A stretch of DNA of 31,167 bases. It comes from a bacterium. GTDB taxonomy: Bacteria > SZUA-182 > DTGQ01 > JAFGSM01. The stretch covers positions 1 through 31,167 of the forward strand of contig JBLIRP010000045.1 in assembly GCA_049472355.1 (NCBI GenBank), in the 5' to 3' direction. The position numbers and the translations under genes were made by a program. The notes below the pieces were generated by a model that saw only the letters and a program-made list of their open reading frames with translations, was not told the origin of the DNA and searched no databases. Below are positions 5,861 to 31,167 of the stretch, in pieces. Positions within the stretch are counted from its first letter, which is position 1. Each line of letters opens with the position of its first letter.

Positions 5861-5870
5861 GGGACGCATC

Positions 5871-6881
5871 ATGCAGGGGACAAAGCCAAGAATAATGATC
5901 GTTGAGGACGAGTTTGTTGTTGCGGAGGATATCAGGGAATGCCTGGAACACCTGGGATATGCCATTTCCTCCACCGCATCGTCGGGGGAGGAGGCATTGG
6001 AAAGGATCGAGCAGGATGCCCCCGATCTGATCCTCATGGACATTGTACTCACCGGGGAAATCGACGGCATTGAGACCGCCTGTCGCATTGCCGGAAGACA
6101 CCACATTCCCATCATCTTTCTCACCGCCCACTCCGAGGACACGATGGTGCTGCGCGCAAAGATGATTGAGCCCTATGGATATATCCTCAAGCCCTTCGAC
6201 GACAGAAGCCTTCTCGTCAATCTCGAGATAGCGCTTCAACGGTCTCAAACGGACCGGCAGCTCCGGGAAAACGAGAGGAAATTCCGCGAATTCGTTGAGG
6301 GCACGGATGACCTCATCATCAGGATAGACACGCAGGGAAATCCTGTGTATATGAATCCCGCCGCTATGCGGATTCTTGGTCCTCAATCGGAGGAGCCAAG
6401 CAGTGCCACCATCCTGGAATTCCTTCACCCCGAAGACAGGGGAACAATGGAGAGGCTTCTCTATACCTGGATGAGGGACAGGAAGGATGACATGTCAATC
6501 GAGAACCGGATCATCGACCGGGATGGCACCGTCCGCGATATACTCTGGGAGATGAACTGGTACTGTAACGACCGGGGAGAGGTTGCGGGGATGAATATGA
6601 TCGGCCGTGATATCACGGAATTAAAGAGGGGCGAGGATGATCTCAAGGAAATAAACAGGCACCTGCGTGAATCCCTTGCCAAGATAAAGCGGCTCAGCGG
6701 ATGCTATTCCATGTGCGGACATTGCAAGAAGATACGGGACGAAAAGGGCCAGTGGCGGCATGTGGAGGAGTATATCCGAACCTTCTCCGATGCGGACCTC
6801 ATTCACACCATTTGTCTCGAGTGTTTGAAAAAGATCTACCCGGATATTTACCACAAGGACATGGGAGGGAAAAAGGGTTAG
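5871..6881 (+). CDS. Response regulator: receiver + PAS + C-terminal Cys/His zinc-ribbon-like domain
   Basis: IMIVEDE, DLILMDI, IIFLTAH, YILKPF receiver motifs; PAS ending GRDITELK; C-terminal CGHCKKIRD...HTICLEC. ATG 5871 follows GAGGG, 10 nt after the kinase stop. Confidence 0.9.
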   Translation: MQGTKPRIMIVEDEFVVAEDIRECLEHLGYAISSTASSGEEALERIEQDAPDLILMDIVLTGEIDGIETACRIAGRHHIPIIFLTAHSEDTMVLRAKMIEPYGYILKPFDDRSLLVNLEIALQRSQTDRQLRENERKFREFVEGTDDLIIRIDTQGNPVYMNPAAMRILGPQSEEPSSATILEFLHPEDRGTMERLLYTWMRDRKDDMSIENRIIDRDGTVRDILWEMNWYCNDRGEVAGMNMIGRDITELKRGEDDLKEINRHLRESLAKIKRLSGCYSMCGHCKKIRDEKGQWRHVEEYIRTFSDADLIHTICLECLKKIYPDIYHKDMGGKKG

Positions 6882-9409: not shown

Positions 9410-10648
9410 TCAGGCCCTTGACGCATCGGGATAGTAATTGGTAAAGAATCTCAGAACCTCGATGTAGGAAAAAAAGACCTTGATCAATTCCGGATCGAAC
9501 TGCCTTCCTGCATTGTCGAACATCTCCTCGAGCACCCGCTCCTCACCCCAGGGCTCCTTGTATGATCTTCGAGAAGAGAGCGCGTCATAAACATCGGCAA
9601 CCGCAACGATCCTTCCGAAAAGTGGTATTTCCTTTTCCTTTTTGGGCAATGGTCTGTTCCCCGGCCCTGAGAATCCGGGGAGCGGTTTGCCGGTGAGAAG
9701 GTCGATATGGCCCGGATATCCCGTGCCATCCCAGCGCTCATGGTGGTTGAGGGCAACCTCGGCAGCCACCTCATCGAGTTCCGATCGCATGCCGTTGAAA
9801 AGCCTCGCGCCCAAATAGGTATGGCTCTTGATTATCTCATACTCTTTCGAGGTCAGGCGTCCGGGTTTCTTGAGGATGACATCACTCACCGCCACCTTAC
9901 CGACGTCGTGTAACATGGCGGCCATTCTCAACATATCCTTCTTGCCGTCGATCTCGGAATGAGAAAGGCCGTTTCTCAATCCCCAGCCCTCGAAGAGGAC
10001 CACGGCATATGAAGCGACCCTGTTGACATGCGCACCGGTTTCATCGGGATCGCGCAACTCGGCCATGCTTATCATCCGAAGAATGAGGTCCCGTGTTACC
10101 TGTGCACGTTCCACGGCAAGGGCGACACTCGTAGCAAAGTGCCCTATCATGTCCTCGCTGGAACGCGCAAAGGGGATAACCTCCCCCTCCTCATCCTTGG
10201 CATTGATGACCTGCAAGACACCAAGCACCTCGCCGCGCTGATCGGTCATGGGAACGGCAAGAACTGAACTGGTCCTGTAATCCGATACCTGATCAAAATT
10301 CTCGTCAAAGGTATACGCCTCCGAACCACTCAGGACATACACATCGGGGATGTTCAGTATCTGCTGATTCCTGGCGACATACCCCGCAATGGAATCATTG
10401 TCGATCGGTATGGAGAAGGTGGTATAGAGGAGTTTTTTGTTGGGTCCCATGCGATTCGCAAGCGTGTCGTTCTGGGTGTAGCTGAATTTCAATTTGTCGC
10501 CCTGTTTGAGATAGATAGAGCCTGCATCCGCATTAAAAAACCTTCTGACATTGGTGAGTATTCGCTCGAGGAGGATGTCGAGGTCCTTTACCTTGTTGAT
10601 ATCAAGGCTTATCTGGGTAATGAGTTCTATCTTTTCCCGTTCGTTCAT
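9410..10648 (-). CDS. GAF domain + HD-GYP cyclic dinucleotide phosphodiesterase
   Basis: GAF (SIAGYVA..IPDVY..FD..SDYRTSSVLAVPM..GVLQVIN) then RDPDETGAHVNRV, LHDVGK, HHERWDGTGYP, RIVAVADVYDALSSRRSYK. Confidence 0.93.
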   Translation of the reverse strand: MNEREKIELITQISLDINKVKDLDILLERILTNVRRFFNADAGSIYLKQGDKLKFSYTQNDTLANRMGPNKKLLYTTFSIPIDNDSIAGYVARNQQILNIPDVYVLSGSEAYTFDENFDQVSDYRTSSVLAVPMTDQRGEVLGVLQVINAKDEEGEVIPFARSSEDMIGHFATSVALAVERAQVTRDLILRMISMAELRDPDETGAHVNRVASYAVVLFEGWGLRNGLSHSEIDGKKDMLRMAAMLHDVGKVAVSDVILKKPGRLTSKEYEIIKSHTYLGARLFNGMRSELDEVAAEVALNHHERWDGTGYPGHIDLLTGKPLPGFSGPGNRPLPKKEKEIPLFGRIVAVADVYDALSSRRSYKEPWGEERVLEEMFDNAGRQFDPELIKVFFSYIEVLRFFTNYYPDASRA

Positions 10649-10796
10649 AAATAAAGCGCCCCCGTCTACTAACTAATCGGCAGGGGAAAATCCCCTCATC
10701 CGGTTCGGGGTGTGGTATCGAATCGGGCGCATATGGTGTCTTCCCGAAACGGGATCGTTGTAACCGTTCAATAAATCCTGGAGATATGACAACATT

Positions 10797-10899
10797 AGTA
10801 GCGTCGCTGAGATCCGCATGACGAAGTTTGGTTGATGTATTCGCAAGCCTTTTTGGGACTGCAAAGAGGAGCATAGTGCTTCGCTTCGCTCCGCATGAC
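10797..10899 (-). repeat. Diverged inverted copy (about 1.3 units) of the 8164-8373 repeat
   Basis: Reverse complement GCGGAGCGAAGCGAAGCACTATGCTCCTCTTTGCAGTCCCAAAAAGGCT...CATCAACCAAACTT...CAGCGACGCT aligns with copies 2-3 at 8264-8360. Confidence 0.8.
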
Positions 10900-11463
10900 A
10901 TAGTTCGGTCTCCCCCTTGCCATGGGATCATGCATGATTGGAGTTACTCGATCCTGCCCTCAATCGCAGGTCAAAGCGTGGTGCTGGAGGTGACAAACTG
11001 CCTACTACCATGATGTCGGGAAATCAAGGGCCCCGATTCGGCAATTCTACTCAAGCCATGGAGAGATATAAATCAAAACTCGAATCACTGATTGAATGCA
11101 GTCTGACTGCCTTTACATTGCTTTGATAAAAAGGCGAATTCTGTCTTTACTCTTAGCCAGGTAAAGCAAATACTCATCATATGTCATAGTCATAACATAT
11201 TATAACGGGTGCAATGGCCGCTTTTGGGTATGGGTTTTAACAGCGAACAGGTAAAAGTGTAGATGGAAAAGGGGGTTGTACGTTTTCCATTAAATAGAAA
11301 CAATAAATTATAGAATATGGCATGGATGAGGGCAGTGGGGCAATGTATTTTATTTGTAACAAATCGAGGGAATATGTTCTTTTTTTTGCAGCCTTGCCGA
11401 ATAAAATTTCACAATCAGCAGTATAAATGTCTTTATTTTTTACAATCAAATGAATTATCTATA

Positions 11464-11479
11464 TGGTATATTTATTGCT
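11464..11479 (+). promoter_or_regulatory. Sigma54 (-24/-12) promoter of the DUF11 operon
   Basis: TGGTATATTTATTGCT has the exact GG-N10-GC spacing of TGGCAC-N5-TTGCW. It sits 75 nt upstream of ATG 11555, after an AT-rich tract. Confidence 0.6.
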
Positions 11480-11554
11480 TACAAACTATAGCTTTTAATA
11501 AGCCGTAGTCATTTTTGCGGATCTTTCTGAATCAATCTTTGTGAGGGGGGAGAC

Positions 11555-12547
11555 ATGAGATTCACGACATGCTGCATACTGCTCACCTGTGCCGCTTTCA
11601 TCCTTTTATCTTCAGCAGCGCCGCCCGCCCTGGCCGTCGGCACACCGGCCGGGACCTTCATCAGCAACAAGGCAACGGCCACCTATACCGTGGGCACGGT
11701 AAGCGGGCTGACCAAGGATAGCAATACATACACCATTACCGTTGATGAGCTGATTGATGCAGATGTTACCTGGGAGGATGCATCCCAAGTGGTCGTGACA
11801 CCGGGCGCCGCATCCCAGGTGCTCACCTTTCTTGTAACCAATACGGGTAATGGCCCGGAAGCCTTCACCCTCTCTGCCCACAGCACCATCACGGGCGATG
11901 ACTTTGACCCGACCCTGGTGGACATCTTCTTTGATGATAATAAGAACGGCGTCTACGACTCGGGCGAGACACAGTACGAGGTGGGAGAGAATGATCCTTT
12001 CATTGCAGCGGATGCCAATGTCACCGTCTTCGTCCTCAACAATATCCCGCTCGATCCCAATGACGGCGACACAGGAGACAGCAGGTTGACCATCACATCC
12101 AAGACCGGAACGGGTGCAGGGACAATCATCGTGGGGGGCGGCCAGGGAGGAACGGATGCGGTCATCGGCTTCTCCGGAGGCACGGACAACGCCACCGGTA
12201 CCTATCTTGTGTCCAGCATAGTCCTGAGCATTGTGAAATCAGCGCAAATACTCGACCCATTCGGAACGGATAGGCCTGTTCCGGGGGCAACGATAACCTA
12301 TTCCATTGTCGTGACCGTGACCGGTTCAGGAACAGCCAAGAATGTCATTATCGAAGACCCCATACCAACGGCGACAGGATATGTGTCGGGCACACTGAAA
12401 TTGAACACAGCGCCTCTATCTGACGATGAGGATGAAGATGCAGGTGATGTCGGGGTAACCAAACCGAACACGGTTACGGTTGCACTAGGGGATTTGACCA
12501 GCGCATCTGCGACACAAACCATCTCTTTTAAGGTCACTATTGATTAA
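11555..12547 (+). CDS. Secreted DUF11 / pilin-like subunit 1
   Basis: GAGGGGG SD; signal peptide ending ALA|VGTPAGTFISNKATATY; middle Ig-like domain (LTFLVTNTGN, DDNKNGVYD loop); C-terminal DUF11 half (IVKS..VPGATITY..IEDPIP..ISFKVTID*). Confidence 0.85.
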   Translation: MRFTTCCILLTCAAFILLSSAAPPALAVGTPAGTFISNKATATYTVGTVSGLTKDSNTYTITVDELIDADVTWEDASQVVVTPGAASQVLTFLVTNTGNGPEAFTLSAHSTITGDDFDPTLVDIFFDDNKNGVYDSGETQYEVGENDPFIAADANVTVFVLNNIPLDPNDGDTGDSRLTITSKTGTGAGTIIVGGGQGGTDAVIGFSGGTDNATGTYLVSSIVLSIVKSAQILDPFGTDRPVPGATITYSIVVTVTGSGTAKNVIIEDPIPTATGYVSGTLKLNTAPLSDDEDEDAGDVGVTKPNTVTVALGDLTSASATQTISFKVTID

Positions 12548-12579
12548 TTAACACACAATACGATGGAGGGAGAGGAGCA

Positions 12580-13080
12580 ATGAAAAAAATATGTACCCGC
12601 GTGGTGCTGCCTGTCATCTTCCTCGCATTCGCCCTGAGTTACCCGGCGATAGCGCAGGAGAAGGGTCATATCGAGCTTACGTGCATTGCCGAAACGGAGA
12701 TCGAGACGGTCAACGAAAAGGGTGAAAAGGAGATACAGCGGGTGGAGGCATCCAAGGTGGTGCCCGGAGACACGGTGATCTATACCATTTTTTACACCGT
12801 TATCGGAAACGATACGGTGAACGATGTTGTCATCAACAACCCCATCCCAGAGCACATGGTCTACAAGGGGGAAACTGCCCTGGGGGAGGGTGCTTCCGTC
12901 ACCTTTTCCATTGACGGTGGAAAGGTCTTCGATTCCCCCGAAAATCTCAAGGTCAAGGATGAGGAGGACAAGGAGCGGGTGGCGATGGCCTCGGAGTACA
13001 CCCACATACGCTGGTCGCTCACCCATGCGGTGAAGCCGGGGCAAACAGGCCAGGTATCCTACCGCGCCCAACTGGAATAG
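12580..13080 (+). CDS. Small secreted DUF11-like protein
   Basis: GAGGAG SD; signal peptide ending AIA|QEK; VVPGDTVIYTI..INNPIPEHMVY..FSIDGG..YTHIRW..VSYRAQLE. Confidence 0.85.
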   Translation: MKKICTRVVLPVIFLAFALSYPAIAQEKGHIELTCIAETEIETVNEKGEKEIQRVEASKVVPGDTVIYTIFYTVIGNDTVNDVVINNPIPEHMVYKGETALGEGASVTFSIDGGKVFDSPENLKVKDEEDKERVAMASEYTHIRWSLTHAVKPGQTGQVSYRAQLE

Positions 13081-13183
13081 AAAAAGGAATATGCCGCCTT
13101 GAGACGCTTTGAGATGCCATGATGCATACGATATACATGGCAACACAGATTTTTGGTATGTATCTAAACAACGGAGGGATGTA

Positions 13184-14293
13184 GTGAAAACCAGGGATTT
13201 CTTCTACACGGCAATTGTTCTCGTATTGACAGGCGCCCTTCTCTTTTGCGTGACGCAAAGGGTTTATGCGGCCGGGACCGCTGCGGGTACCCCCATCTCC
13301 AACAGCGCTACCATTGATTATACGGTTAACGGCATAGAGCAGACTCCCATAGAAAGCTCGCCATCTACATTCGTAGTGGACAACAAGGTGGATCTGACGG
13401 TTGAAACGCAGGGTACAGCACCTGTATCGATAACCCCCGGTGGCACCGAGTATGTCTTGACCTTCCTGGTTAACAATGAAGGCAACAGAATCCAGGATTA
13501 CCTTCTGGCTGCAACTGCTGTGATCACAGGGGGTGAGACCAATTTCGATAATGAATACGACGATTTCGACATGAATGTCCCCGTCGCTATATATGTTGAT
13601 ACGAATAACAATGGCACCTATGAACCGGGAACCGATACTGCCACCTTTATCGATAATCTGGCTGCGGATTCGAGTATTTACGTATTCATCGTAGCCAATG
13701 CACCATTGAGCGCCACAAACGGACAATATGCTTCCTATTACCTCACGGCAACCACTCGTGACGGGGAAACTGGCGGTGAAATCTCCGAATCCGGCACTGA
13801 CGACCCAAATAACATAGATATAGTGTTTGCAGATCCCAATGGTCCTCAGGACGACTCACGAGATGGGAAACATTCCGCTCAGCATGATTACAAGTGTTTA
13901 TCATCGGTACTGACGATTAACAAAACATCGGAAGTCAAATCTGATCCTATTAATGATGAATCGAATCCTAAACGCATTCCTGGCGCTGTCGTCGAGTACA
14001 CCATAACCGTTTCGAATGCTGCCGGAGCAGCGACAGCCACCGGTATAACCGTATCGGACGACCTGAGTACGGAGATTGGCCTCACTAACATTGAATTCCA
14101 TCCTGATGGCTATGCTTCAGGCTACGGTATCCAGGTAACCGCGCCCAATATCAATGGAGGTTCTTCGAAGGATCTCTCAAACGTTTCGGGTGATGACGAG
14201 GGTGCTTTTTCTGCAAATACGGTTACCGTGACCGGAATAGACCTGGATGGAGGGGAATCCGCCACGGTTACGTTCCAGGTCGAAATCCAGTAG
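13184..14293 (+). CDS. Secreted DUF11 / pilin-like subunit 2
   Basis: GTG start after GGAGGG; signal peptide then GTAAGTPISNSATIDY. Paralogous to 11555 (LTFLVNNEGN, DTNNNGTYE); C-terminal INKTS..SDPIN..NPKRIPGAVVEYTITVSN..VSDDL..VTFQVEIQ*. Confidence 0.85.
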   Translation: MKTRDFFYTAIVLVLTGALLFCVTQRVYAAGTAAGTPISNSATIDYTVNGIEQTPIESSPSTFVVDNKVDLTVETQGTAPVSITPGGTEYVLTFLVNNEGNRIQDYLLAATAVITGGETNFDNEYDDFDMNVPVAIYVDTNNNGTYEPGTDTATFIDNLAADSSIYVFIVANAPLSATNGQYASYYLTATTRDGETGGEISESGTDDPNNIDIVFADPNGPQDDSRDGKHSAQHDYKCLSSVLTINKTSEVKSDPINDESNPKRIPGAVVEYTITVSNAAGAATATGITVSDDLSTEIGLTNIEFHPDGYASGYGIQVTAPNINGGSSKDLSNVSGDDEGAFSANTVTVTGIDLDGGESATVTFQVEIQ

Positions 14294-14555
14294 AAAACAT
14301 CGGAATGGTGCCCTGCGATAAAGGTGTGTATCTGCATTAATCCCCTATGATAATGCTGGTTGCTGTTCGCGGAAGGGATAAGGGTTTGCTGCCTTTGAGT
14401 GCATATACCCAGGCCCGTGGCATAGATCCATATAACCACTTAAACAGTGAAGGTGCAGACAAACTGAAGGTACAGGAGCCCTATGGATCAGTAAACAGGT
14501 GAGACATTCAATTACATTAGGAATCAGACAGGATGGCCAACATCCCTGGAGGGAC

Positions 14556-17500
14556 ATGAAGAGACGTTTTTCCCTCCCGCTTTCCGGCATGACCCTGGCA
14601 TGTGCCTTTCGGGGTTGGATAGCGGGATGGATTGAAATCCTCTCCCGGTTTTCCCGGGTATGTCACCGGTCCCTCTATTCCTTGTATTCCTTCCCTGTGC
14701 ATGTCTTTTTCATCCGGGGGCCTCGCAATCCCCCGATGCTTCTCATACTTCTTTTCATCCTTCTTCTTTCATCCTATCTATGTGCTGAAGAGACTAACCC
14801 TTTTCCCAGGAAGGTCCTCAATACGGCTACTGCATCCTTTCGGATCGGCGATGAAGGCGCGCAGACGGCCCAGTCCAATACCGTGGCCATGGCGATCGAG
14901 TTCCGCACACCCTCGGAGCTGAGCTTCCGGCAATATGCGCCTTATGTCTCCTGCGGGGAATCATTCAGCGTCGCAGTAACGGAATATGATGCCGGCGGCA
15001 GCGGGGATTTCCTCACTATGGGAGCCCCGGTCATATTCGGCACACCCCTTGACATCAGCGGACCGGTTACCCTTACCCAAGGGGGCGTATACCACAAGGG
15101 CGAGCCCATCTTCCTGGTGCTCAGGGATCAGGATCAGGATGTCGACCCTGACCGCAGGGATACGGTCCTGGTGACCATAGCCATCGATGCCCTCGGCGAG
15201 AAGGAGGTCCTTCGTCTCACGGAATCAGGGGAAAACACCGGTGTTTTTGCCGGCTATATCCAGACCAGCAGTATTTCCCCTGCCATGTATGACGGCCTCC
15301 TCTCTGTTGCCGACGATGTCAGGGTGGTGGCGACATACTCCGACAAGTGGGACGGGACGGACACGGATGCATCCGCCGCACTGGTGGACCCATACGGAAT
15401 CATCTTTGACAGCATGACCGGGCTTCCGGTGAACGGGGCAACCATCACCTGCATCGATGCGGATACCGGCCTCCCTGCCGCGGTTTTCGGGGATGACGGG
15501 GTAAGCGTCTTCCCTTCCACCGTTATCTCGGGCGGGAGCGTCAAGGACAGCAGCGGCAGGGAGTATCTCTTTGAACCGGGCACATTCAGGTTCCCGTTCA
15601 TAGCCCCGGGCAATTACCGCTTCGAGATCACCCCCCCTGCGGATTATTTCTTCCCCTCCACCGTATCCGTGAGCATCATCCAGTCACTCCCCGGTGCGCC
15701 CTTTGCCATAGACACGGGATCGCTCGGCGGGATATTCGTGGTGAATCCGGGCCCTGTCGTGCATATCGATATCCCCCTCGACCCTGCTGCATCGGCCCTT
15801 TATGTGAGAAAAACCGCATCCAAACATACGGCTTCGCACGGTGACTTCATCCAGTTCATGGTGAGTGTTGAGAATCCGAGCGCTGCCGCCACCGTTCCGG
15901 GTGTGGAGGTCAAGGACCTGCTCCCCCGGGGATTCCGCTACCAGAAGAATTCAACCAAAATAAACGGAGAGCAAGGGGAAGAGCCCCTCATTTCACCCGA
16001 TGGCCGCAGCATGACCCTTGCCATCGGGGACCTCCCGGCCCATTCCAAGGCGAGTGTGAGCTATGTGGCGGAGGTGGCCGCAGGCGCCAGGATCGGTGAT
16101 GCGGAGAACCTCGCATGGGCAACGGGCGCAGGGGGCGAGAATTCCAATATAGGTAAGGTTACCGTGAAGGTCCGCCATGAGTTCATGCGCTCTGCGTGCA
16201 TCATCCTCGGGCAGGTGACAATCGAGGGATGTGCGGACAACGAAACCACGCAAAAGGAAAACGGCAAAAGGGAGGACAGGGGACAGGTCCCGGCCCCCTG
16301 CGTGCTTCCGGGTGTGCGGGTGTATCTTGAAAACGGCTCCTCGGTGATCACCGATAAAAACGGGATGTATCATTTTGAAGGGGTTGACCCGGGCGTGCAC
16401 GTGGTGCAGATGGATGTGGAGAGTATCCCTGAGGAATACCAGCCGAAGGAGGGGAGAAACGACCGGTTTGCGGGGAATGCCTTCTCCCGGTTCGTGGATC
16501 TCCAGGCAGGCACCATGTGGAGGGCGGACTTCACGGTCTGTCCGAAAAGGCCGCCGCAGGGCGAGGCATTCATGTCGATTGAGGCCGAATCCCCGGACGA
16601 TGGAGAAACAAGAGGATATTATGTTCATATGGGCGGCACGGGTGTGCCGCTGCGGAATGTCCGCATTGTGCTGATGCTCCCGGAGGGTGTTGCCTACGAG
16701 GAGGGGAGCGCCCTCCTCGATGCGATGCCGGTTCCCCCGGAGATTGCCGATGGCGCCCTCACCTTTCGAATCGGGGACACCCAGGCGGAATGGATGAAGA
16801 ACCTCCGGGTAAATGCCTGCCTGTCCGATGCAAAGGGTGGGCAGGGCATGCTAAGGGGCGTGATGCTTTTTGATACGGAGACGCTGCGCAACCAGCGCAC
16901 ACCCGTTGCCGGGATAGACGCGCATGCCAGAGAAGGTGACAGCGGGCTCATGAAGATGCAAACCGAGGGGGCTGCACAGGGAAAGGGAAAAGGGACAGCA
17001 CAACCTGATCAGGACACCGGCGCGAAGGGGGCTTCCTTTGACGATGCATGGCTTGAGTCAGCGCCATCCGGGTTTGAATGGCTCTTTCCCGCAGAGGGGT
17101 ATCTCCCCTCCATCCCGAGCATCAAGGTGGTGATAAAACATCACCCTTCCGAGCGGATCAGCCTGCTCCTTGACGGGAAGGAGGTGGATCCCCTGAATTT
17201 CGACACCCTGATCAAGAACAAGTCGGGCACGGCAGCGCTCAGCGTATGGCGGGGGATCGATCTGCACGAGGGTGACAACCGCTTCGAGGCCGTGCTCCTG
17301 AACAGCAGGGGAGAGGGTGCAGGCCGCATTGCACGTTCCATCCATTACTCGGATATACCTGTCGATGCGGAGGTCCGGGAAGGGGATTCCGCCCCCTTTG
17401 CCGACGGGAAGACCCCTCCGGTGATAGCCATACGCCTCACCGACAAATATGGCTATCCGGCACGGCAGGGCATTATCGGCGAGTTTTCCATAGATCCACC

Positions 17501-20153
17501 CTATGCCGCATTGCAGGAGTCTGAGGTGTACCAGAATGTTCAGTTGTCCGGCATGAACCAACACCGCCCGCGCTATACGGTGGGCAGGGATGGGATCGCC
17601 CTGTTGAGGCTGCAACCCACCTCCTCCACCGGCGAGGCGGTCATCCGGCTGAATCTCGCAGGGGGCGAGCGGGAGATCAGGACATGGCTGAAGCCCGCTG
17701 CCAGGGAGTGGATACTCGTGGGGCTTGCACAGGGGGGCATCGGGTACGCGACCGTGCGCGATCATATGGAAGGCTCAAATGAGACCGGCATGGAGGAGGG
17801 GATGATCACCGATGGCGGTGTGGCATTCTTCGCAAAGGGGCAGATCAAGGGGAAATGGCTGATGACCATCGCCTATGACAGCGAGCGGGATACGCACAGG
17901 GAGGATAAAAACCTCCACCAGACCATCGACCCCGATGCCTACTACGGCCTGTATGGCGATTCCACGAGCCAGGTACCTGAGGCGGCAAGCGCCGAGAAGC
18001 TGTATCTCAGGATAGAGCGCGGGCAGTTCTACGCCCTGTTCGGGGATTACGACACCGGCCTGACGGTCACCGGGCTTTCCCGCTATAGCCGGAGCCTCAC
18101 CGGATTCAAGACCGAGGGGCAGTCGGAATATTACACCTTCAGCGCGTTCGTGAGTGAAACAAACCAGGCCTTTGTCAAGGACGAGATACGGGGAAACGGC
18201 ACCTCGGGCCTCTACCACCTCTCCAGGAGCAACATCGTCCAGGGCTCCGATAAGGTGACCATCCAGACGCGTGACCGTTTCCGCAGTGAAAGGATCATTT
18301 CCGTCCGGCAGCTCACCAGGCACCTCGATTATGCCATCGATTATGAGACCGGCTCCCTCTATTTCAAGCAGCCGGTCATGAGCAAGGATGAGCAGTTCAA
18401 CCCCGTTTACATCGTTGTGGATTACGAATCCTATGACGAGGGGGACCGGTCGGCGAATTACGGAGGCAGGGGTGCGGTGAGGCTCATGGACCGGAGGCTT
18501 GAGATCGGTGCGACCCACATCCACGAGGGCAGGGTGGGTGGTGAGGGGAACCTCTATGGCGTGGATGTGACCTATGACCTTTTCCATGGGAACAGCATCA
18601 AGGCGGAGGTTGCGCACTCCAGCACCGATTTTGGCGGTGCAAAGAGGCAGGGGGATGCCTACAGCGCCGAGGTCATCCACCAGTCGGATCAGGGGCATGG
18701 ATCCGTATATATCCGCGAGGAACAGGACGGCTTCGGCCTCGGCCAGCAGAACGGGGGCGAGACAGGGACGCAGAAGGTGGGTGTGGAGGCATCCAGAAAG
18801 GTGAATGAGCAGGTGACCCTTACGGGACAGGCATATCGCCATACATTCCGCTCCACAGGCGCGGTGCGTGACGTTCTTGAGGGGGATGGCACATACCGGA
18901 ACGGGGGCTATTCCATCAAGGCCGGCATGAGGGGCGCGGCGGACGAGCTGGGGGATGGCAGGGTGAACAGATCCAATCAGCTTCTGACAGGCGCCGGATA
19001 CGATGCATTCGGCAATCGTCTGAATCTCTCGCTGGAACATGCACAATCGGTGGGCGGGGATAACGGCAGCGGGGATTTTCCCACCCGCACCAGGCTGGGC
19101 GCCGATTATCACATTGCAGCGGATACGACCCTTTTCGGTGTTCATGAAATAACCGACGGAAGGTCGGAGGATGCGCAGATCTCCCGCATAGGGCTGAAGA
19201 CAAGGCCATGGTCGGGGGGGGAGATGCAGACCTCCATGCAGCAGGATATCAACGAGAACGGCCCCAGGACCTTTGCCAATCTCGGTTTGCGCCAGACATG
19301 GCAGGTCACGGAGCAATGGGCTCTGGACGGAAGCCTTGACCAGGCAAGGACAATCAAATCCCCGGGGAATACCCCCTTGAATCTCAATGTCCCTCAGGCA
19401 TCCGGCGGGGGGGATGATTTCACCTCCCTCTCCCTGGGCGCTACCTATACAAGGCAGAAGTGGTCATGGACCTCCCGTGTCGAGCGTCTCATCTCAGACA
19501 CCAGCCACAAATGGGGGCTTTTCACCGGCATCCTTGGCGAACCCCGCCATGGGCTTGGCCTGTCGCTCAGCGCGCAGGTGTTCCATACCGAGCATGCCAC
19601 GGGAGCAGAGGACAGCACGGGCGATATCCGGCTCTGCCTCGCCTATCGGCCAACGCATACGGATTGGATAATCCTTGACCGTCTGGACATCCTCTTTGAC
19701 AGCCGCACGGATGAAACTACGGACCTCGACGGTTGGAGGGTCGTCAATCACCTGAATGCGAATTACACCCGCGAAAAGACGCAGATCTCCCTCCAGTACG
19801 GGGCAAGGTATGTCATAGAGACCATGGATGGCGACAGGTACAGGGGATATACCGACCTTGCAGGCATCGAGGGGCGTTATGATATCACGAAACGTATGGA
19901 TGTGGGGATCCGGGTGAATGTCCTGCACTCATGGAATGCCCGGCAGTTCGATTATTCCTATGGCCCCTCCGTCGGCATGTGCGCAGCGAAAAACCTCTGG
20001 GTCAGCATCGGATACAATATCACCGGATTTACCGACAGGGACTTTTCATACGCGAATTACACGGCACAGGGTCCGTATCTGCGCTTCCGTTTCAAGATAG
20101 ACCAGACAAGCGGCCAGGATATCACAAGGCTGATTCGGATGCTTTTCTTATGA
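14556..20153 (+). CDS. Very large outer-membrane protein: Ig/DUF11/SdrD-B-like domains plus predicted C-terminal beta-barrel
   Basis: ATG 14556 after GGAGGG (alternative 14736 gives a compact signal peptide ending LCA|EE). Complete DUF11 (YVRKTAS..KDLLP..ENLAW..SN), Cna-B/SdrD-like GVRVYLENG..TDKNGMYHF, and a long Gly/aromatic alternating-strand C-terminal region ending LWVSIGYN..GPYLRFRFKIDQ. Confidence 0.8.
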   Translation: MKRRFSLPLSGMTLACAFRGWIAGWIEILSRFSRVCHRSLYSLYSFPVHVFFIRGPRNPPMLLILLFILLLSSYLCAEETNPFPRKVLNTATASFRIGDEGAQTAQSNTVAMAIEFRTPSELSFRQYAPYVSCGESFSVAVTEYDAGGSGDFLTMGAPVIFGTPLDISGPVTLTQGGVYHKGEPIFLVLRDQDQDVDPDRRDTVLVTIAIDALGEKEVLRLTESGENTGVFAGYIQTSSISPAMYDGLLSVADDVRVVATYSDKWDGTDTDASAALVDPYGIIFDSMTGLPVNGATITCIDADTGLPAAVFGDDGVSVFPSTVISGGSVKDSSGREYLFEPGTFRFPFIAPGNYRFEITPPADYFFPSTVSVSIIQSLPGAPFAIDTGSLGGIFVVNPGPVVHIDIPLDPAASALYVRKTASKHTASHGDFIQFMVSVENPSAAATVPGVEVKDLLPRGFRYQKNSTKINGEQGEEPLISPDGRSMTLAIGDLPAHSKASVSYVAEVAAGARIGDAENLAWATGAGGENSNIGKVTVKVRHEFMRSACIILGQVTIEGCADNETTQKENGKREDRGQVPAPCVLPGVRVYLENGSSVITDKNGMYHFEGVDPGVHVVQMDVESIPEEYQPKEGRNDRFAGNAFSRFVDLQAGTMWRADFTVCPKRPPQGEAFMSIEAESPDDGETRGYYVHMGGTGVPLRNVRIVLMLPEGVAYEEGSALLDAMPVPPEIADGALTFRIGDTQAEWMKNLRVNACLSDAKGGQGMLRGVMLFDTETLRNQRTPVAGIDAHAREGDSGLMKMQTEGAAQGKGKGTAQPDQDTGAKGASFDDAWLESAPSGFEWLFPAEGYLPSIPSIKVVIKHHPSERISLLLDGKEVDPLNFDTLIKNKSGTAALSVWRGIDLHEGDNRFEAVLLNSRGEGAGRIARSIHYSDIPVDAEVREGDSAPFADGKTPPVIAIRLTDKYGYPARQGIIGEFSIDPPYAALQESEVYQNVQLSGMNQHRPRYTVGRDGIALLRLQPTSSTGEAVIRLNLAGGEREIRTWLKPAAREWILVGLAQGGIGYATVRDHMEGSNETGMEEGMITDGGVAFFAKGQIKGKWLMTIAYDSERDTHREDKNLHQTIDPDAYYGLYGDSTSQVPEAASAEKLYLRIERGQFYALFGDYDTGLTVTGLSRYSRSLTGFKTEGQSEYYTFSAFVSETNQAFVKDEIRGNGTSGLYHLSRSNIVQGSDKVTIQTRDRFRSERIISVRQLTRHLDYAIDYETGSLYFKQPVMSKDEQFNPVYIVVDYESYDEGDRSANYGGRGAVRLMDRRLEIGATHIHEGRVGGEGNLYGVDVTYDLFHGNSIKAEVAHSSTDFGGAKRQGDAYSAEVIHQSDQGHGSVYIREEQDGFGLGQQNGGETGTQKVGVEASRKVNEQVTLTGQAYRHTFRSTGAVRDVLEGDGTYRNGGYSIKAGMRGAADELGDGRVNRSNQLLTGAGYDAFGNRLNLSLEHAQSVGGDNGSGDFPTRTRLGADYHIAADTTLFGVHEITDGRSEDAQISRIGLKTRPWSGGEMQTSMQQDINENGPRTFANLGLRQTWQVTEQWALDGSLDQARTIKSPGNTPLNLNVPQASGGGDDFTSLSLGATYTRQKWSWTSRVERLISDTSHKWGLFTGILGEPRHGLGLSLSAQVFHTEHATGAEDSTGDIRLCLAYRPTHTDWIILDRLDILFDSRTDETTDLDGWRVVNHLNANYTREKTQISLQYGARYVIETMDGDRYRGYTDLAGIEGRYDITKRMDVGIRVNVLHSWNARQFDYSYGPSVGMCAAKNLWVSIGYNITGFTDRDFSYANYTAQGPYLRFRFKIDQTSGQDITRLIRMLFL

Positions 20154-20292
20154 AACTGCGAATGTCGAATGTTGAATGTCGAATGTTGAATGTTGAAGTG
20201 AAAGTGAAACGCACATGAGCCGGATGAAACTGCGAATGTCGAATATCGAATGTAGAATGTAGAAGTGAATGTAGAAGTGAAACGCAGATGAG
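20150..20292 (+). repeat. Two ~74-bp units built from GAATGTY heptamers
   Basis: ATGAAACTGCGAATGTCGAAT... at 20150 and 20224, each ending GAAGTGAAACGCA(C/G)ATGAG-like; unit 1 overlaps the stop of the large gene. Confidence 0.85.
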
Positions 20293-20340
20293 ACTTCGGC
20301 TCACAAGGAAGCATGAAAATGCCCCGGAGGGGATTTTCAG

Positions 20341-23052
20341 ATGAAAGGGATGCACTTTCAAGAGGACAACCGAGCAATGGACCGGACCGTTTGCAGCGCA
20401 ATACAGATAACGAAGATCATTATTGCATGCGCACTCATCATCCTTCCCCTTTTTTGCTTTCTCCTTCTGGAGGGTGCAGACCCAGTCTATGCCGGGACAC
20501 CGGTGACCTTGTACCGAAGCTTTGCGGGAAATATCGATTTCACCAGCACCGGGGGGACATTGAGGACACAGCCGAATCCGGTCGATGCCTGCGCGGTGAC
20601 GGACCATGGCTCGGCACCCCTTTTCGATATCCCTTCCGGCGCCGTGATCAGGGCGGCATATCTCTACTGGGCAGGCTCATATGCCGACCGAAAGGGATCA
20701 ACGCGGCGAACCCCCGATTATGACATAACCTTCGAGGCATATAACCTGACCGCAGACCGCACATTCACCGAGACGTTCCCCTTCTCAGGGACGAACCATG
20801 ACTTTTTCTGCGGTTTTGCCGATGTAACCCCGATCGTTGCCGCAAAAGGGAATGGCACCTATTCATTCGGGGGGCTGAGCGTCAACAGCGGCGCCCCTCA
20901 TTGCGGCAGCAAGGGTGTGGTGGCGGGCTGGGCACTGGTGGTCGTGTTTGAGCATCCGGGGGAGCACTTCCGGGTCATCAACCTGTTCGACGGGTTCCAG
21001 TACTACTGGGGGAGCCAGATCATCCTGACCCCGGGCAACTTCCGCATTCCCGTTTCTCCCATAGAGGGGAGGCATGCGCACATAAGCTGGGAGGGGGACG
21101 AGGAGAATTCAAATCCCTTGAACGGCTATACGGAGGGCCTCATCTTCAACGGAAATGTGCTCACGGACGGCCTCAGCCCGGTCAACAACCAGTTCAACTC
21201 AACGATCAACAGCCTGGGTGTGGATGACAGCTACGGCGTGGATATCGACACGTACGATATCAGCGCCTACCTTCATGCAGGCGACACCTCGGCCACCACC
21301 ATATACCGCTCGGGCGAGGATATGGTGCTCCTGAGCGCAGAGATCATCTCGGTGACCAACACCCCTGTGGCGGACCTTGCGATTGCCAAGAATCATGCGG
21401 GGGGATTCACCGTCGGAGAAAACGGCGCGTATACCATTGTAGTCAGCAACAACGGTCCCCATGATGCGGAGGGCCCCATTACCGTGAGCGATACCCTGCC
21501 TGCAGGTCTTGATTATGTTACAAGCTCCGGCACCGGCTGGACGGCGGACACATCCGCATTGCCGGTCATCACCTGGACACATCCCGGCCCGCTGCCCGAA
21601 GGGGAGGGATTGCCTCCCGTAACATTGACCGTGTCCGCAGGTCCTGCGGCCGTCCCGCAGGTAACGAATACGGTGACCGTCTCGAGCCCCACCTTCGACA
21701 ATCAGGCCGGCAACAACAGCAGCAGCGACCCGACCGCGGTCCTCGGCCCTGACACTGCCAACAAGCCGCTGTATCTGTATGGAAGCCCGGGGCTTCAGCT
21801 TTCCCGGACCCCGCCCCAGGGGTCACCGGCATCGGTGACCATCCAGGGAAACGGGAGATCCGTTCAATGGAGCATGACACCGGCGACCGCAGCCCCTCTC
21901 ACCCTCGCCGCAGGGCTTCACCCGGTCAGGCTCTGGATCAGCCGTGATCGCAAGGGGACATCCCGGACGCTTACCGTGGCGATTGCCTCCACCGGCGCCA
22001 CATCCGGTCCCATCGGGGACCCGGTCACCAGAAGCTTTACCATTTCCCATGGGCGCCGGGGCACCACACAGATACCTTTCAATGTGTCCCTGCCCTCGGA
22101 AGTCACCCTCTTGCCGGGCTCCCGGATCACCTTGACCGTAACCAACGGATCCTCTCATAAGGATCATTCCGTGACCGTGCATACCTCCTTTGAGGACGAA
22201 AGCTCACGGGTCGATCTGAATGCCTCGACGGTCATCGATATCCATACCGCAGGGGCATACGATGCGCCCTATCCCGGAGGGGCTGTCCCGCCCTGTTTTC
22301 TCCCCGGCTCCCCTGTGCATATCAGGGCCATGGTAGCTGATCCCTTCGGGAGCTTCGATATAAGCGGCGTCACCATCACCATCATCAATCCGGAAAATTT
22401 CATCGTCATTGCAAACGCCCCTATGCCAAAGGTATTCGATTCAGGGGGATCGGATGCAGTCTATGAATATCCGTATGATCTGCCTTCATGGCCCACCGGT
22501 ACATGGCAGGCGATCATCAGGGCCATGGAGGGGACAGAGGACCTGGTGAACGACGAATATGTCTTTTCATTCCCCGTCGGCGGACCGGAGATCCTGGTGA
22601 TGAAAAGCGTCTACACCCTTTCGGATCCATACAACGAAAATGTCAATCCCAAGGCGATCCCCGGTGCTACCATGCTCTATACGATTACCATCACCAATCA
22701 GGGGATCGGCCCTGTGGACGGCAACACCATGGTGATCACAGACCCCGTCCCCGAACATACATCCCTGTTTGTGAACGATATTGATGCCCCCGGCTCAGGG
22801 CCCCTCCTCTTCCTGGACGGGACGGTCCCGAGCGGCCTGACCTATACATTCACCAGCCTGGAGAGCGCAACGGATGATATCGACTTCTCCAATGACGGCG
22901 GGATGACATACACCTACGTGCCCCTATCGGATGCCCAGGGATTTGACGGGAATGTCACCCATATTCGGGTGTCTCCCCAGGGTGCCTTCCAGGGGAGCAC
23001 CACACCGCCCGCCCCATACGCTGACCTGAAATTCAAGGTGCGAGTGAACTGA
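20341..23052 (+). CDS. Secreted multidomain DUF11 adhesin-like protein
   Basis: Signal peptide ending VYA|GTP (start may be 20377). N-terminal beta-sandwich with AAYLYWAG, GWALVVVFE, DIDTYDIS (DUF3344-like); complete DUF11 (ADLAIAK..SDTLP..TNTVTV..NNSSSD); C-terminal DUF11 half (VMKSV..SDPYN..NPKAIPGATMLYTITITN..TDPVP..LKFKVRVN*). Confidence 0.82.
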   Translation: MKGMHFQEDNRAMDRTVCSAIQITKIIIACALIILPLFCFLLLEGADPVYAGTPVTLYRSFAGNIDFTSTGGTLRTQPNPVDACAVTDHGSAPLFDIPSGAVIRAAYLYWAGSYADRKGSTRRTPDYDITFEAYNLTADRTFTETFPFSGTNHDFFCGFADVTPIVAAKGNGTYSFGGLSVNSGAPHCGSKGVVAGWALVVVFEHPGEHFRVINLFDGFQYYWGSQIILTPGNFRIPVSPIEGRHAHISWEGDEENSNPLNGYTEGLIFNGNVLTDGLSPVNNQFNSTINSLGVDDSYGVDIDTYDISAYLHAGDTSATTIYRSGEDMVLLSAEIISVTNTPVADLAIAKNHAGGFTVGENGAYTIVVSNNGPHDAEGPITVSDTLPAGLDYVTSSGTGWTADTSALPVITWTHPGPLPEGEGLPPVTLTVSAGPAAVPQVTNTVTVSSPTFDNQAGNNSSSDPTAVLGPDTANKPLYLYGSPGLQLSRTPPQGSPASVTIQGNGRSVQWSMTPATAAPLTLAAGLHPVRLWISRDRKGTSRTLTVAIASTGATSGPIGDPVTRSFTISHGRRGTTQIPFNVSLPSEVTLLPGSRITLTVTNGSSHKDHSVTVHTSFEDESSRVDLNASTVIDIHTAGAYDAPYPGGAVPPCFLPGSPVHIRAMVADPFGSFDISGVTITIINPENFIVIANAPMPKVFDSGGSDAVYEYPYDLPSWPTGTWQAIIRAMEGTEDLVNDEYVFSFPVGGPEILVMKSVYTLSDPYNENVNPKAIPGATMLYTITITNQGIGPVDGNTMVITDPVPEHTSLFVNDIDAPGSGPLLFLDGTVPSGLTYTFTSLESATDDIDFSNDGGMTYTYVPLSDAQGFDGNVTHIRVSPQGAFQGSTTPPAPYADLKFKVRVN

Positions 23053-23121: not shown

Positions 23122-23463
23122 TTATAGTAAATAAAAGGGTTTTTTCCCGGCAATGACTATGAAGGGGGATTGTACCGATTCCCTCCATGGACTCGGCAGT
23201 CCTTCCATACCCTATGATTGACGACGTGAGGGGTGGTGTTTAACCCCTCATGCACACAGAAGGCGCTCCCTTTCCAGAAGCCTGTTCGATGAATCGAGAC
23301 GAAGGGAGGTGAGAAGTAACCATCCGGTATAAGGCATCCTTTGAACACCTGTCGATTCGTTCCACAAGGAGGTATATGCAGTTCCTTTAAACACACATGA
23401 ATTGCACCTTACGTGAGTTCCGTTTTGCGTTGTCCACGTTTTTTTGCATTTAGGAGGTTTGCC

Positions 23464-24015
23464 ATGTTTGGAAAAATAAACATTTTGAAATGGGGGATAA
23501 TGGCACTTGTAATCCTGACGGCGGTGGTACTCATCAGTGCACCATCGGCACGTGCCCAGTACTGGTCCGCCCTTCCCCCGTATAATCTTCTCTGGCCGCT
23601 CTGGTCTCCCGCACTCTCTCCCGTCGATGCAGTCACCGGTCTTGCGACCCCCCTGATTTCCCAATTGACCGCCGGCACCAGCCTGCCTGTTCAACCGAGC
23701 CTCGCATGGGACCCTGCGCGTCAATTTCCGTGGCTTCTGTACAATATCCCCGGGATACTGGGAGGCGGCATAACCTATTTCGATCCCTATTTCGGTCTCA
23801 ATCCATGGCCCCCGTCATATCTCCTCGATTCCTCCGGGCTGGCCGCACCCCTGACTCTCCCTCTCGATTTCGGGCTCCTTCCCCCCACGGACCTCGCTGC
23901 ATTCGGTCCATTCGTCGGGCAGGCCAATCTCTCATTCCTCGCGACCTATCCCACGGCGAACTTCGGCATTCCGCTGGCGAGCTTGCTGACGGCAGCCCGG
24001 ATATGGGGGCTGTAG
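23464..24015 (+). CDS. Secreted Pro/Leu/Trp-rich hypothetical protein
   Basis: AGGAGG SD, ATG 23464, signal peptide ending ARA|QYWSALPPYNLLWPLWSP; codon usage looks native. Confidence 0.8.
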   Translation: MFGKINILKWGIMALVILTAVVLISAPSARAQYWSALPPYNLLWPLWSPALSPVDAVTGLATPLISQLTAGTSLPVQPSLAWDPARQFPWLLYNIPGILGGGITYFDPYFGLNPWPPSYLLDSSGLAAPLTLPLDFGLLPPTDLAAFGPFVGQANLSFLATYPTANFGIPLASLLTAARIWGL

Positions 24016-29990: not shown

Positions 29991-31167
29991 ATGAATTACA
30001 GCGAGTATAGAGATTGGGTATCCTGTTATATAGGGGTAAAGGGGCGGATCAAAAAGGTCTGCACCGGATACATCCTCTTTCTCATGGTGTCGGTGCGCAA
30101 GCATTCATTGGATGAGGCATCCCGCCTTTTCGAGCACAGCACATCAGGATACAGCAAGTTTTTAAAAAACCATGCGGGATGAGCGGTGAAGAGTTTAGCC
30201 CATCTATCCCGCAAGCAGGCAAAAAGGATAGCCAAGGACCTGAAGCATTTGGCAGCCGATAAACTCCCGTGGAAGATTGCGATTGTCGTTGACAGCACAA
30301 TACAAAAAAGATCGACCAGGCATACGGACAATGCCCAGCGATTCAACCATGGAAAGGGGTTTGTCATCGGCCATCAATGGACCAATAGCATCATGCTGCT
30401 CAACGACACGGTCGTGCCGCTTCCCCCGATCCCCTTTCATACCAGGAATTATTGCCAAAAACATGCCCTTGAGTATACAACGGAACATGACTTGGTTGCC
30501 GCATATATAAAGGACCTGCAGTTAGAAGACTATATCGGGCCATATCGTGATCAGGAGGTAGTGGTCCTTGCCGACAGCGGCTATGACAACAAAAAGATCC
30601 AGAATGCGGTTGCACAAAGGAAGTGGAATTTTATTATCTCCCTGGGCAAGACCCGGAGTGTGAAGTCCGAGAAGACCTATGCAGATACCCCTGAATCGAA
30701 GGGTTGGATCACGGTGGCTGATCTTTTCAGGAATCATCGCAGGCTCAAGTGGCAGACTATTCGTATTGCTGCGAATAGTTCGAAAAGGAAGCGAATTGAT
30801 TTTCGCGCCCGACAACTCGTTGGCTATCTGCGCTCCGTGGGGATGGTCAAATTGGTTTGTTCGGAATTTAAGAAAAGACCGGATGGTCGAAGAAAATACT
30901 TGGCCTGCAATGATCTTAACGCAACGCTTCGGCACATCGTGATGGGGTACCGCATGCGATGGCGTATTGAGATCTTCCATAAGGAGGTGAAAATGCACCT
31001 TGGGTTTGAGGATGTATCCACCCGATGGTTCCAATCGGTAACGGCCCATGTCCACTGGGTGTACTGTGCCTACATCCTGCTCCATGCCCCTCCCCCCGGG
31101 ATCTCGGACCAGGCTCAGTCCCTGGTCGAAAGGCAGCGCAAGATAAGGCAGATAATTGACTCAAGGC
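29991..31167 (+). mobile_element. DDE transposase, IS4/IS701-like, with in-frame TGA at 30180-30182; runs off window
   Basis: GGAGG SD and ATG 29991. The same frame continues past the stop: IAIVVDST, VLADSGYD, YRMRWRIEIFHKEVK (Y-2-R-3-E-6-K signature). Confidence 0.88.

Follow-up and report, generated by a model that had tools for sequence, protein, structure and literature searches.

Why should a set of neighbouring secreted proteins each carry only a part of one and the same immunoglobulin-like (Ig-like) domain? This is the question raised by an operon in the window analysed here, a stretch of 31,167 nucleotides from contig JBLIRP010000045.1 of the bacterial assembly GCA_049472355.1. Positions 11555-23052 hold five open reading frames (ORFs) on the plus strand, each with an apparent Sec signal peptide, coding for two pilin-like proteins (pilA and pilB), a small protein, a protein with a giant C-terminal beta-barrel and an adhesin-like protein (Table 1). 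We read the operon as coding for a surface fibre of a two-membrane bacterium, which would be built from a CLIPPER/DUF11 Ig-like domain split between its subunits, and we give this reading a probability of about 0.6.

The genes were read as ORFs and the Sec-type signal peptides of the five proteins were judged by eye. All five proteins score above the cut-off of 24 bits for TIGR01451 (pilA 39.6, small protein 26.0, pilB 28.2, barrel protein 35.7, adhesin 47.1). With the DUF11 model PF01345, which has a cut-off of 24.6 bits, pilB (29.8), the barrel protein (38.2) and the adhesin (76.8) are over the threshold and pilA (24.5) and the small protein (21.3) slightly below it. Pfam and NCBIfam scans of the five proteins returned DUF11-type and other Ig-like families alone, and by these profiles the five are assigned to the CLIPPER/DUF11 family. 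In pilA the signal peptide (by eye, cleaved between ..ALA and VGT) is followed by a hairpin that we call the donor, a middle domain D1 and a truncated end domain D2. The layout of pilB is similar but more variable, with Lys272 and Asp317 in an end domain that finishes in ..TVTFQVEIQ.

The domains that end the chains were compared with a complete-domain reference profile made from the DUF11 domain of 41 barrel proteins. Its alignment with pilA breaks off at pilA residue 325 of 330 (profile position 100 of 146), and that with pilB at residue 393 of 394 (position 104); in a profile-profile comparison (probability 96.6, E 6e-10), pilA 243-329 covers positions 23-102 out of the 138 residues of the complete domain. 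As aligned, the end domains of pilA, pilB, the small protein and the adhesin stop after strand 7, and about 32 residues, comprising the loop and strands 8-9, are absent from all four. An earlier note on this DNA had listed the C-termini ..FKVTID, ..YRAQLE, ..FQVEIQ and ..FKVRVN, and these are present in the four proteins; the other strings and positions that it quoted are also correct, with ENLAWATGAGGENSNIGKVTVKV found at 16104-16172. The cut is the same in 59 related loci taken from one-genome-per-species contigs, where every class ends 0-2 residues past the FxVxIx strand, save a few pilB proteins with a short tail.

A candidate for the absent part is found at the N-termini of pilA, pilB and the barrel protein, where each carries a hairpin. 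A profile of pilA residues 28-67 matches residues 55-91 of pilB (E 1e-9) and 106-130 of the barrel protein (E 1e-5), with no match in the adhesin or the small protein of the window, nor in any of the 30 adhesin-class and 58 small-class ORFs. Among the barrel ORFs with an N-terminus, 34 of 45 match the hairpin profile, and the motif can be recognized by eye in the other 11, directly after an AxA-type cleavage site. This motif, xNxAxA, a turn and SNxxxxxV, is common to the hairpins and the end of the complete domain. The loop was also compared: pilA keeps 1 residue after the end of strand 7 and 10 residues precede Asn38, and the intact loop in the barrel protein's domain has 10, so the loop lengths of the putative halves add up to the intact domain. 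The split described by the earlier note, with the barrel protein as donor only, the two pilins as both, and the adhesin and small protein as acceptors only, held up and is kept across phyla. Taken alone, the likeness of the hairpins to the complete domain is weak, so that it is their position, their motif and their conservation among related loci that carry the argument.

The CLIPPER family offers a chemical reason to look at three residues of this domain. In a solved CLIPPER domain, 9IFR, an intramolecular bond is reported to join Lys715 to Asn806, with Asp748 nearby (PMC12617251); the Lys of this triad belongs to strand 1 and the Asn to strand 8. The profile of the system's complete domains finds 9IFR (E 3.5e-6) with the Lys, Asp and Asn in register; in this alignment the conserved Asp is that of an xDxL motif and the Asn lies 91 residues after the Lys. 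The printed alignment puts the Asp 34 residues after the Lys, against 33 by the numbering of the paper, a discrepancy of one residue. Only the complete-domain profile reached 9IFR; the adhesin's complete domain alone gave no relevant sequence match in the PDB, and the pilA profile gave none. The two complete domains of the window share the triad spacing of 9IFR (K350/D384/N443 in the adhesin and K438/D473/N537 in the barrel protein, compared with K715/D748/N806).

A triad within one chain, as in 9IFR, is found only in these two complete internal domains and in none of the four terminal ones. The truncated domains of pilA (K228/D268), pilB (K272/D317) and the adhesin (K755/D801) have the Lys and Asp only, and an Asn is found in the hairpins of pilA (N38), pilB (N65) and the barrel protein (N108). 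Judged by these residues, the four terminal domains are a split variant of the CLIPPER/DUF11 family. The same division is seen among relatives. The pilA family has the Lys in 284 of 286 sequences, the Asp in 283 and the hairpin Asn in 255, and in the pilB class the Lys occurs with the Asp in 54 of 55 aligned ORFs and the hairpin Asn in 52 of 54 matches. The barrel hairpin has its Asn in all 45 ORFs holding the N-terminus. The adhesin end domain, which comes with no hairpin, has the Lys in 27/27 and the acid as Asp in 25 and Glu in 2 of the 27, three rows having been dropped from the count (two cut by the locus end and one too short). The split divides the Lys/Asp/Asn triad, so the joints are probably covalent, a point that goes beyond the earlier note.

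The strongest argument for joints in trans comes from the two ends of the putative chain: the tips keep the Lys and the acid without an Asn strand in the same protein, and the base keeps the Asn hairpin beside complete domains. The same observation bears on a simpler explanation, in which the proteins are circularly permuted and each pilin hairpin completes the end domain of its own chain, perhaps with an intramolecular isopeptide bond. The pilins would then stay monomers in the envelope or at the surface, and pairing would be left to the barrel hairpin, with the adhesin or the small protein. Such a closure fits the AlphaFold2 model of the pilA monomer (73 sequences), which is very confident, hairpin included, with a predicted local distance difference test (pLDDT) of 96.5 and a predicted template modelling score (pTM) of 0.80. 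It also fits the geometry of the protein, which by reasoning rather than computation lets D1 lie beside D2. However, simple permutation explains neither the kept Lys and acid of the adhesin (27/27 without a hairpin) nor the hairpin of the barrel protein, and it leaves unaccounted for the cut of four protein classes at the same loop, the one motif of three hairpins and the constant presence between the pilins of a dedicated catcher-like protein without the Lys/Asp pair. We consider it quite improbable.

Several observations nevertheless weigh against a split-domain fibre. In the pilA monomer model the hairpin forms two long strands (pLDDT 92-97) docked inside the monomer, which is compatible with closure in cis. 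Mean-field direct coupling analysis of 286 pilA sequences (effective number 242), in which the hairpin is too conserved, placed 24 of its pairs with D1 and 21 with D2 among the top 300, showing no enrichment; the highest-ranked pairs lie within domains. When the hairpin profile was compared with the complete domain, hhalign gave a probability of 10 and an E of 0.003, with the register on the second strand, and Pfam gave no match for any of the three hairpin peptides. An adhesin-type gene is found on either side of the core in only 17 of 32 fully covered flanks, a lower bound, as flanks end near the barrel gene. The hairpin Asn is replaced in 31 of 286 pilA relatives, mostly by Ser or Thr, and these keep the Lys and Asp. 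Two copies of mature pilA scored 0.39, 0.50 and 0.23 in a complex prediction whose mark was 0.42 and whose three controls scored 0.00; this result was counted neither way. The earlier note's interpretation, a polar chain running from the barrel protein through the pilins to the adhesin, is partly supported: its donor and acceptor distribution, its gene set and its lack of usher, PapD-type chaperone and sortase hold, but cis closure of the two pilins still competes with it.

The absence of the Asn from 31 of 286 pilA hairpins means that not every joint can be covalent; the joints in these relatives would be non-covalent, or would use another chemistry or partner. The replaced Asn is often followed by Gln (..ITSQAT..), and its column corresponds to positions 11666-11668 of the window. 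This variation also bears on a second alternative, a fixed four-part stalk in which trans joints link a single copy each of the barrel protein, pilA, pilB and the adhesin, giving a fibrillar adhesin delivered in pieces with no pilA homopolymer. The evidence for trans joints applies equally to such a stalk, and three donors against three covalent-type acceptors (pilA, pilB and adhesin) fit a 1:1:1:1 chain. The loss of the Asn in pilA hairpins and its retention in 45 of 45 barrel hairpins look as if heterotypic joints matter more. On the other hand, pilA has both halves, is encoded first and is the best conserved of the proteins (about 50% identity across phyla), as is typical of a major subunit that is repeated, and the common motif of the three hairpins leaves no obvious bar to pilA-pilA joints. 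The fixed stalk is in our view unlikely, and within a fibre pilA is the likely main subunit.

The middle domain D1 of pilA (model residues 37/41-194) matches the macroglobulin (MG) domains of bacterial alpha-2-macroglobulin in 4u48 and 4ziu, with a VIA-align Z of 9.8 and a root-mean-square deviation (rmsd) of 2.7 A over 106-108 residues. The hairpin lies outside this match, which starts at model residue 37-41. A D1 loop rich in Asp and Asn (about residues 115-141 of pilA, window 11900-11980) is invariant at D127, N129, N131, G132 and D138, and we take it to resemble a calcium-binding loop.

The gene set belongs to a conserved system. Among 8000 scored candidates, 1849 belong to the pilA family at E<=1e-3, and 1066 representatives of 50%-identity clusters do so at E<=1e-30; the identity of about 50% holds across sources as well as phyla. 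In the related loci pilA is followed by the small gene in 54 of the 56 with room for it, the order pilA, small, pilB is found in 45 of 47, and the barrel gene completes the order in 41 of 44. A core order kept in 41 of 44 loci across phyla indicates that the arrangement is not due to chance, and the earlier note's refuting condition, that homologs would not keep the gene set together, does not hold. By record title the loci come from Gamma-, Alpha- and Betaproteobacteria, 'Deltaproteobacteria'/Desulfobacterales/Geobacter (Pseudomonadota and Desulfobacterota-type), Myxococcota, Zixibacteria, Eisenbacteria, Krumholzibacteriota, Fibrobacteraceae (Fibrobacterota), Nitrospirota and, distantly, Bacteroidota, so that at least nine phyla are represented. 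A cultured bacterium, Erythrobacter rubeus KMU-140 (locus L052), carries the full set. Within the window's own phylum a pilA-type gene reaches E<=1e-30 in only 2 of 20 genomes, the present one and another from its genus, and this patchy presence together with its frequency in unrelated phyla suggests horizontal spread. One further locus (L015) has pilA and the small gene on a 3565-nt contig of a metagenome-assembled genome labelled Halobacteria archaeon, for which a binning error is more likely than an archaeal copy.

One protein among the relatives, P0122 (1335 aa), presents two of these parts in a single chain. In it an end domain of the adhesin type is followed at once by a mature pilin (junction 1030/1031), and a signal peptide is absent from the join. 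This junction is the one that the fibre model predicts and lends weak support to it, P0122 being a singleton on a 4149-nt contig; a search for longer fused proteins found 14, none of them close, and no relative with the P0122 junction. The order of P0122 is its own N-terminal hairpin with a D1-like domain, repeats, the adhesin-type end domain and a complete mature pilin, and by eye the fused end domain seems to be without the Lys and Asp.

The barrel protein has its signal peptide end (..YLCA) at ORF residue 96, with a true start upstream of 14736, and is ordered as an N-terminal hairpin, about 900 residues of Ig-like domains, with CarboxypepD_reg-like matches in Pfam as well, and the C-terminal giant beta-barrel. 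An AlphaFold2 model of its last 884 residues (41 sequences) reached a pLDDT of 75 overall and 80-93 in the strand run, with a pTM of 0.68. It shows about 32 consecutive strands of 8-17 residues (model 302-865) followed by a terminal helix; the run is preceded by earlier strands (109-231) and then by a stretch rich in beta structure (232-301). Foldseek placed Deinococcus SlpA (E 1.9e-9, TM-score 0.28) and SprA first among 134 matches at E<=0.001, followed by LptD, TonB-dependent receptors and FimD, and the leading matches are all outer-membrane barrels. In VIA-align the leading matches are instead the FimD/PapC ushers, at 8-11% identity and an rmsd of 6-11 A; their Z of 17.4-15.2 is about 3 above that of AlgE, VDAC and SlpA. 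The profile of the C-terminal part has no sequence relative in the PDB at E<=10. The modelled C-terminus is a very large outer-membrane barrel, with nothing more specific established. The most conserved portion of this region precedes the strand run (model 61-90 and 151-300). After the first strand block, the conserved stretch at 17949-18398 (about ORF residues 1151-1300) has the motifs RGxGTSGLY, RDRF, DYxIDY and NFNPxFIVVxYE, and it may, by its position, be reminiscent of an usher plug, which we offer as a guess.

The topology of the barrel is relevant to a third alternative. A barrel with an even number of strands normally has its two ends on the periplasmic side, so that the chain and the N-terminal part of the barrel protein could lie in the periplasm and form an envelope scaffold, such as an outer-membrane tether or an S-layer-like coat. 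The barrel protein also matches an anammox S-layer family, weakly (E 2.7e-6, with 25 bits where the cut-off is 1400). The variable, domain-shuffled N-termini of the tip proteins (DUF3344 and others) look, however, like outward binding modules, and the barrel is far larger than an anchor needs. CLIPPER domains, moreover, are described from surface adhesins and pilins (PMC12617251). We regard a periplasmic scaffold as very improbable.

The adhesin is ordered as signal peptide, DUF3344 (residues 55-338), the complete CLIPPER/DUF11 domain, a middle region and the truncated acceptor, with no N-terminal hairpin. Its end domain is related to pilA D2 (profile comparison probability 94); when pilA was compared with the profile of adhesin residues 430-903, the end domain alone was matched and no D1-like module was found in the middle region. 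Across loci, the tip genes share only the last ~160 residues (745-903) with the adhesin of the window and the rest is variable. Tips of the FimH type likewise combine a conserved acceptor domain with a variable binding part.

The small protein consists of a signal peptide and one truncated DUF11-type domain, with no hairpin. Its class has the Lys in only 23 of 57 members, and the position of the Asp is Asp in 12 and Asn in 45 of the 57, with Lys and Asp together in 8; the protein of the window has Thr34 and Asn87 at the two positions. In this it is unlike the adhesin and unlikely to be just a second tip, and we propose that it may act as a non-covalent cap or chaperone of the hairpins. The ESM Atlas gave no functional lead for it, returning only unnamed or DUF11 clusters of 164-178 aa.

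Put together, the mechanism that we propose for the fibre would run as follows. The subunits would reach the periplasm by Sec, and the hairpin of subunit i would insert into the end domain of subunit i-1, rebuilding a complete domain; the rebuilt domains would stack the subunits like a tandem Ig array, and at most joints the Lys and Asn would react spontaneously to form an isopeptide bond. The polarity of the chain would follow from who carries which half: the adhesin, as acceptor only and with a variable binding part, would be the tip, pilB and/or pilA (n), with both halves, would form the shaft, and the donor-only N-terminus of the 1884-aa barrel protein would be the base, whose ~32-strand barrel would anchor the fibre in the outer membrane. 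The barrel protein probably doubles as the export pore, as it is the only conserved outer-membrane component. The small protein, catcher-like and mostly without the Lys/Asp pair, would bind hairpins reversibly in the periplasm and so prevent the pilins from closing on themselves or joining prematurely; alternatively, it would serve as a non-covalent cap. What is observed is that the halves are complementary, that the triad is divided between them, that the gene set is conserved and that the barrel belongs to its fold class; insertion in trans, the covalent bond, the length of the polymer, its topology and growth direction and the role of the small protein are what we infer from them.

Searches for machinery agree with the earlier statement that PapC/PapD and sortase are not evident. 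No usher (PF00577) was found in the five proteins at E<=0.01 or in the genome, which is 87.5% complete, no PapD_N (PF00345) in the window's proteins or the genome, and no sortase (PF04203) in the genome. A stronger proposal would see in the operon a pilus class of its own, spread over nine or more phyla of two-membrane bacteria, with split-CLIPPER subunits that ligate themselves without sortase, usher or PapD, a giant protein that is export pore, terminator and covalent anchor at once, and a catalytically disabled catcher as the chaperone that keeps hold of the reactive hairpins up to assembly. We advance it tentatively, as somewhat short of an even chance.

Table 1. Positions of the operon genes and of the domains and hairpins of their products (nucleotide positions in the window, residues of each ORF).
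Feature	Position	Strand	Description
pilA	11555-12547	+	330 aa
pilA, candidate donor hairpin	11636-11743	+	residues 28-63, VGTPAGTFISNKATATYTVG...DSNTYTITV, Asn38; own-profile E 1.7e-21
pilA, D1	11744-12217	+	residues 64-221, macroglobulin-like beta-sandwich; conserved TNTGNG, DxNxNGxYDxGxD
pilA, D2, candidate acceptor	12218-12544	+	residues 222-330, CLIPPER/DUF11 strands 1-7 only, Lys228, Asp268, ends ..ISFKVTID
small protein	12580-13080	+	166 aa
pilB	13109-14293	+	394-aa ORF; start likely later, near 13184
pilB, candidate donor hairpin	13271-13378	+	residues 55-90, AGTAAGTPISNSATIDY...ESSPSTFVV, Asn65; hairpin profile E 1e-9
barrel protein	14499-20153	+	1884-aa ORF
barrel protein, candidate donor hairpin	14787-14897	+	ORF residues 97-133, ..KVLNTATASFRIGDEGAQTAQSNTVAMAI, Asn108, right after signal peptide
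barrel protein, complete CLIPPER/DUF11 domain	15765-16172	+	residues 423-558; Lys438, Asp473, Asn537 in one chain
barrel protein, predicted outer-membrane barrel strand run	18402-20093	+	ORF residues 1302-1865, ~32 membrane-length beta-strands
adhesin	20341-23052	+	903 aa
adhesin, complete CLIPPER/DUF11 domain		+	residues 345-467; Lys350, Asp384, Asn443
adhesin, candidate acceptor domain	22573-23049	+	residues 745-903, Lys755, Asp801, ends ..LKFKVRVN

Two gaps of the operon are unusually long: the one before the barrel gene (14294-14735), of ~200-440 nt depending on the true start, and the one before the adhesin gene (20154-20340), of ~190-220 nt. In many other loci, unlike here, the barrel ORF comes directly after pilB. 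No terminator or RNA family stood out in these gaps, Rfam gave no match in the window and none in 10600-14900 at E<=1, and the counts of promoter-like sites (12 against 10.0 expected) and terminator-like sites (15 against 11.7) are not above chance. Upstream of the operon and on the opposite strand lies a gene for an HD-GYP-type phosphodiesterase with a GAF domain (9410-10648, minus strand), and near it are genes for a PAS histidine kinase (3710-5860, plus) and a PAS response regulator (5775-6881, plus). Cyclic di-GMP (c-di-GMP) signalling may be linked to the fibre; a c-di-GMP riboswitch was not found in the two Rfam scans. Directly downstream, 23413-24015 (plus) is an ORF of 200 aa that is matched by neither Pfam nor NCBIfam; its sequence begins with a hydrophobic stretch and contains much Pro and Leu. 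A DDE transposase gene at 30186-31166 (plus) runs off the contig end.

What defines a class of pilus is the machinery that assembles it, and few such classes have been recognized (chaperone-usher, type IV, curli, type V and sortase pili). If our reading is true, the operon stands for a further class, from families unrelated to the known ones, and for a major unnoticed route of attachment or aggregation in environmental Pseudomonadota, Desulfobacterota-type bacteria, Myxococcota, Nitrospirota and several candidate phyla. Its ~32-strand barrel would then rank with the largest outer-membrane barrels formed by one chain, and would offer folded proteins a new way of export.

In its working the proposed fibre is most readily compared with chaperone-usher pili (FimH-FimG-FimF-FimA(n), with FimC and FimD), which share with it an acceptor-only variable tip and a dedicated outer-membrane barrel. 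The parts are different: those pili depend on a PF00577 usher and a PF00345 chaperone, neither of which was matched here, in line with the earlier note's view that different families are used. The donor would be a two-strand hairpin here and is one strand there, and the fold is that of a CnaA-like CLIPPER domain instead of the pilin Ig fold. The barrel, with ~32 predicted strands against 24 in ushers, is part of the same chain as the donor-only base subunit. Unlike the joints of chaperone-usher pili, those of the fibre probably turn covalent, and the candidate chaperone would hold the donor, whereas a PapD-type chaperone fills the acceptor groove.

Sortase pili (SpaA, RrgB, EbpB, T6) resemble the proposed fibre in having CnaA/CnaB isopeptide subunits that are covalently joined, and the complete-domain profile matches EbpB, T6 and Spb1 in the PDB weakly (E 0.006-0.009). 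Their joint, however, is made by sortase at LPXTG; here the genome gave no sortase and the four acceptors end at FxVxIx without a sorting signal. SpyTag/SpyCatcher, SnoopTag/SnoopCatcher and isopeptag were made in the laboratory from domains of Gram-positive adhesins and form their bond spontaneously on docking. As in the operon, such engineered pairs have the Lys and the catalytic acid on one part and the partner residue on the tag, and the split proposed here would be a natural one, evolved for assembly. If so, nature already uses the split isopeptide trick of tag/catcher pairs for enzyme-free covalent fibres, in the periplasm or on the surface, and the loci could be a source of orthogonal tag/catcher pairs, including a ready-made non-reactive catcher.

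The closest relative in family is the CLIPPER domain 9IFR, in which, as in fibrillar adhesins, the triad sits in one chain and stabilises a stalk domain (PMC12617251); in the split variant strands 8-9 and the Asn would be on other proteins, and the bond, if formed, would join subunits. GhpA, the best PDB sequence match of the complete-domain profile, is a DUF11 grappling-hook protein made of a single giant chain, not split (10.1101/2025.08.19.671072). We found no description of a DUF11/CLIPPER donor-strand pilus in two-membrane bacteria in a literature search whose coverage leaves out most subscription journals and bioRxiv supplements.

The nearest parallels in mechanism are found in other families. 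The BsaA fibres of Clostridium perfringens (TasA family) combine donor-strand exchange with an intermolecular isopeptide bond and no sortase, and mutation of the bond residues is reported to abolish oligomers; BsaA differs by its TasA-like fold, its Gram-positive host, a single N-terminal donor strand and the lack of an outer-membrane barrel (PMC11580942). The Saci_0406 thread of the archaeon Sulfolobus acidocaldarius is held by donor-strand complementation, with a proposed intermolecular isopeptide bond and no sortase known, and there the bond is drawn from the N-terminal amine of Asp24 to Asn57 of subunit n+2, with no DUF11 domain, barrel or tip/anchor set (PMC9715654). Haloarchaeal tafi are a further donor-strand proposal, from other families again (PMC11821415). 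The likeness to TasA/BsaA and to the archaeal threads is one of mechanism only, with no TasA-type or Saci_0406-type family in our scans. The principle thus has precedents in archaeal threads and BsaA, and the novelty of the putative split-CLIPPER fibre lies in its parts, its host envelope and its machinery.

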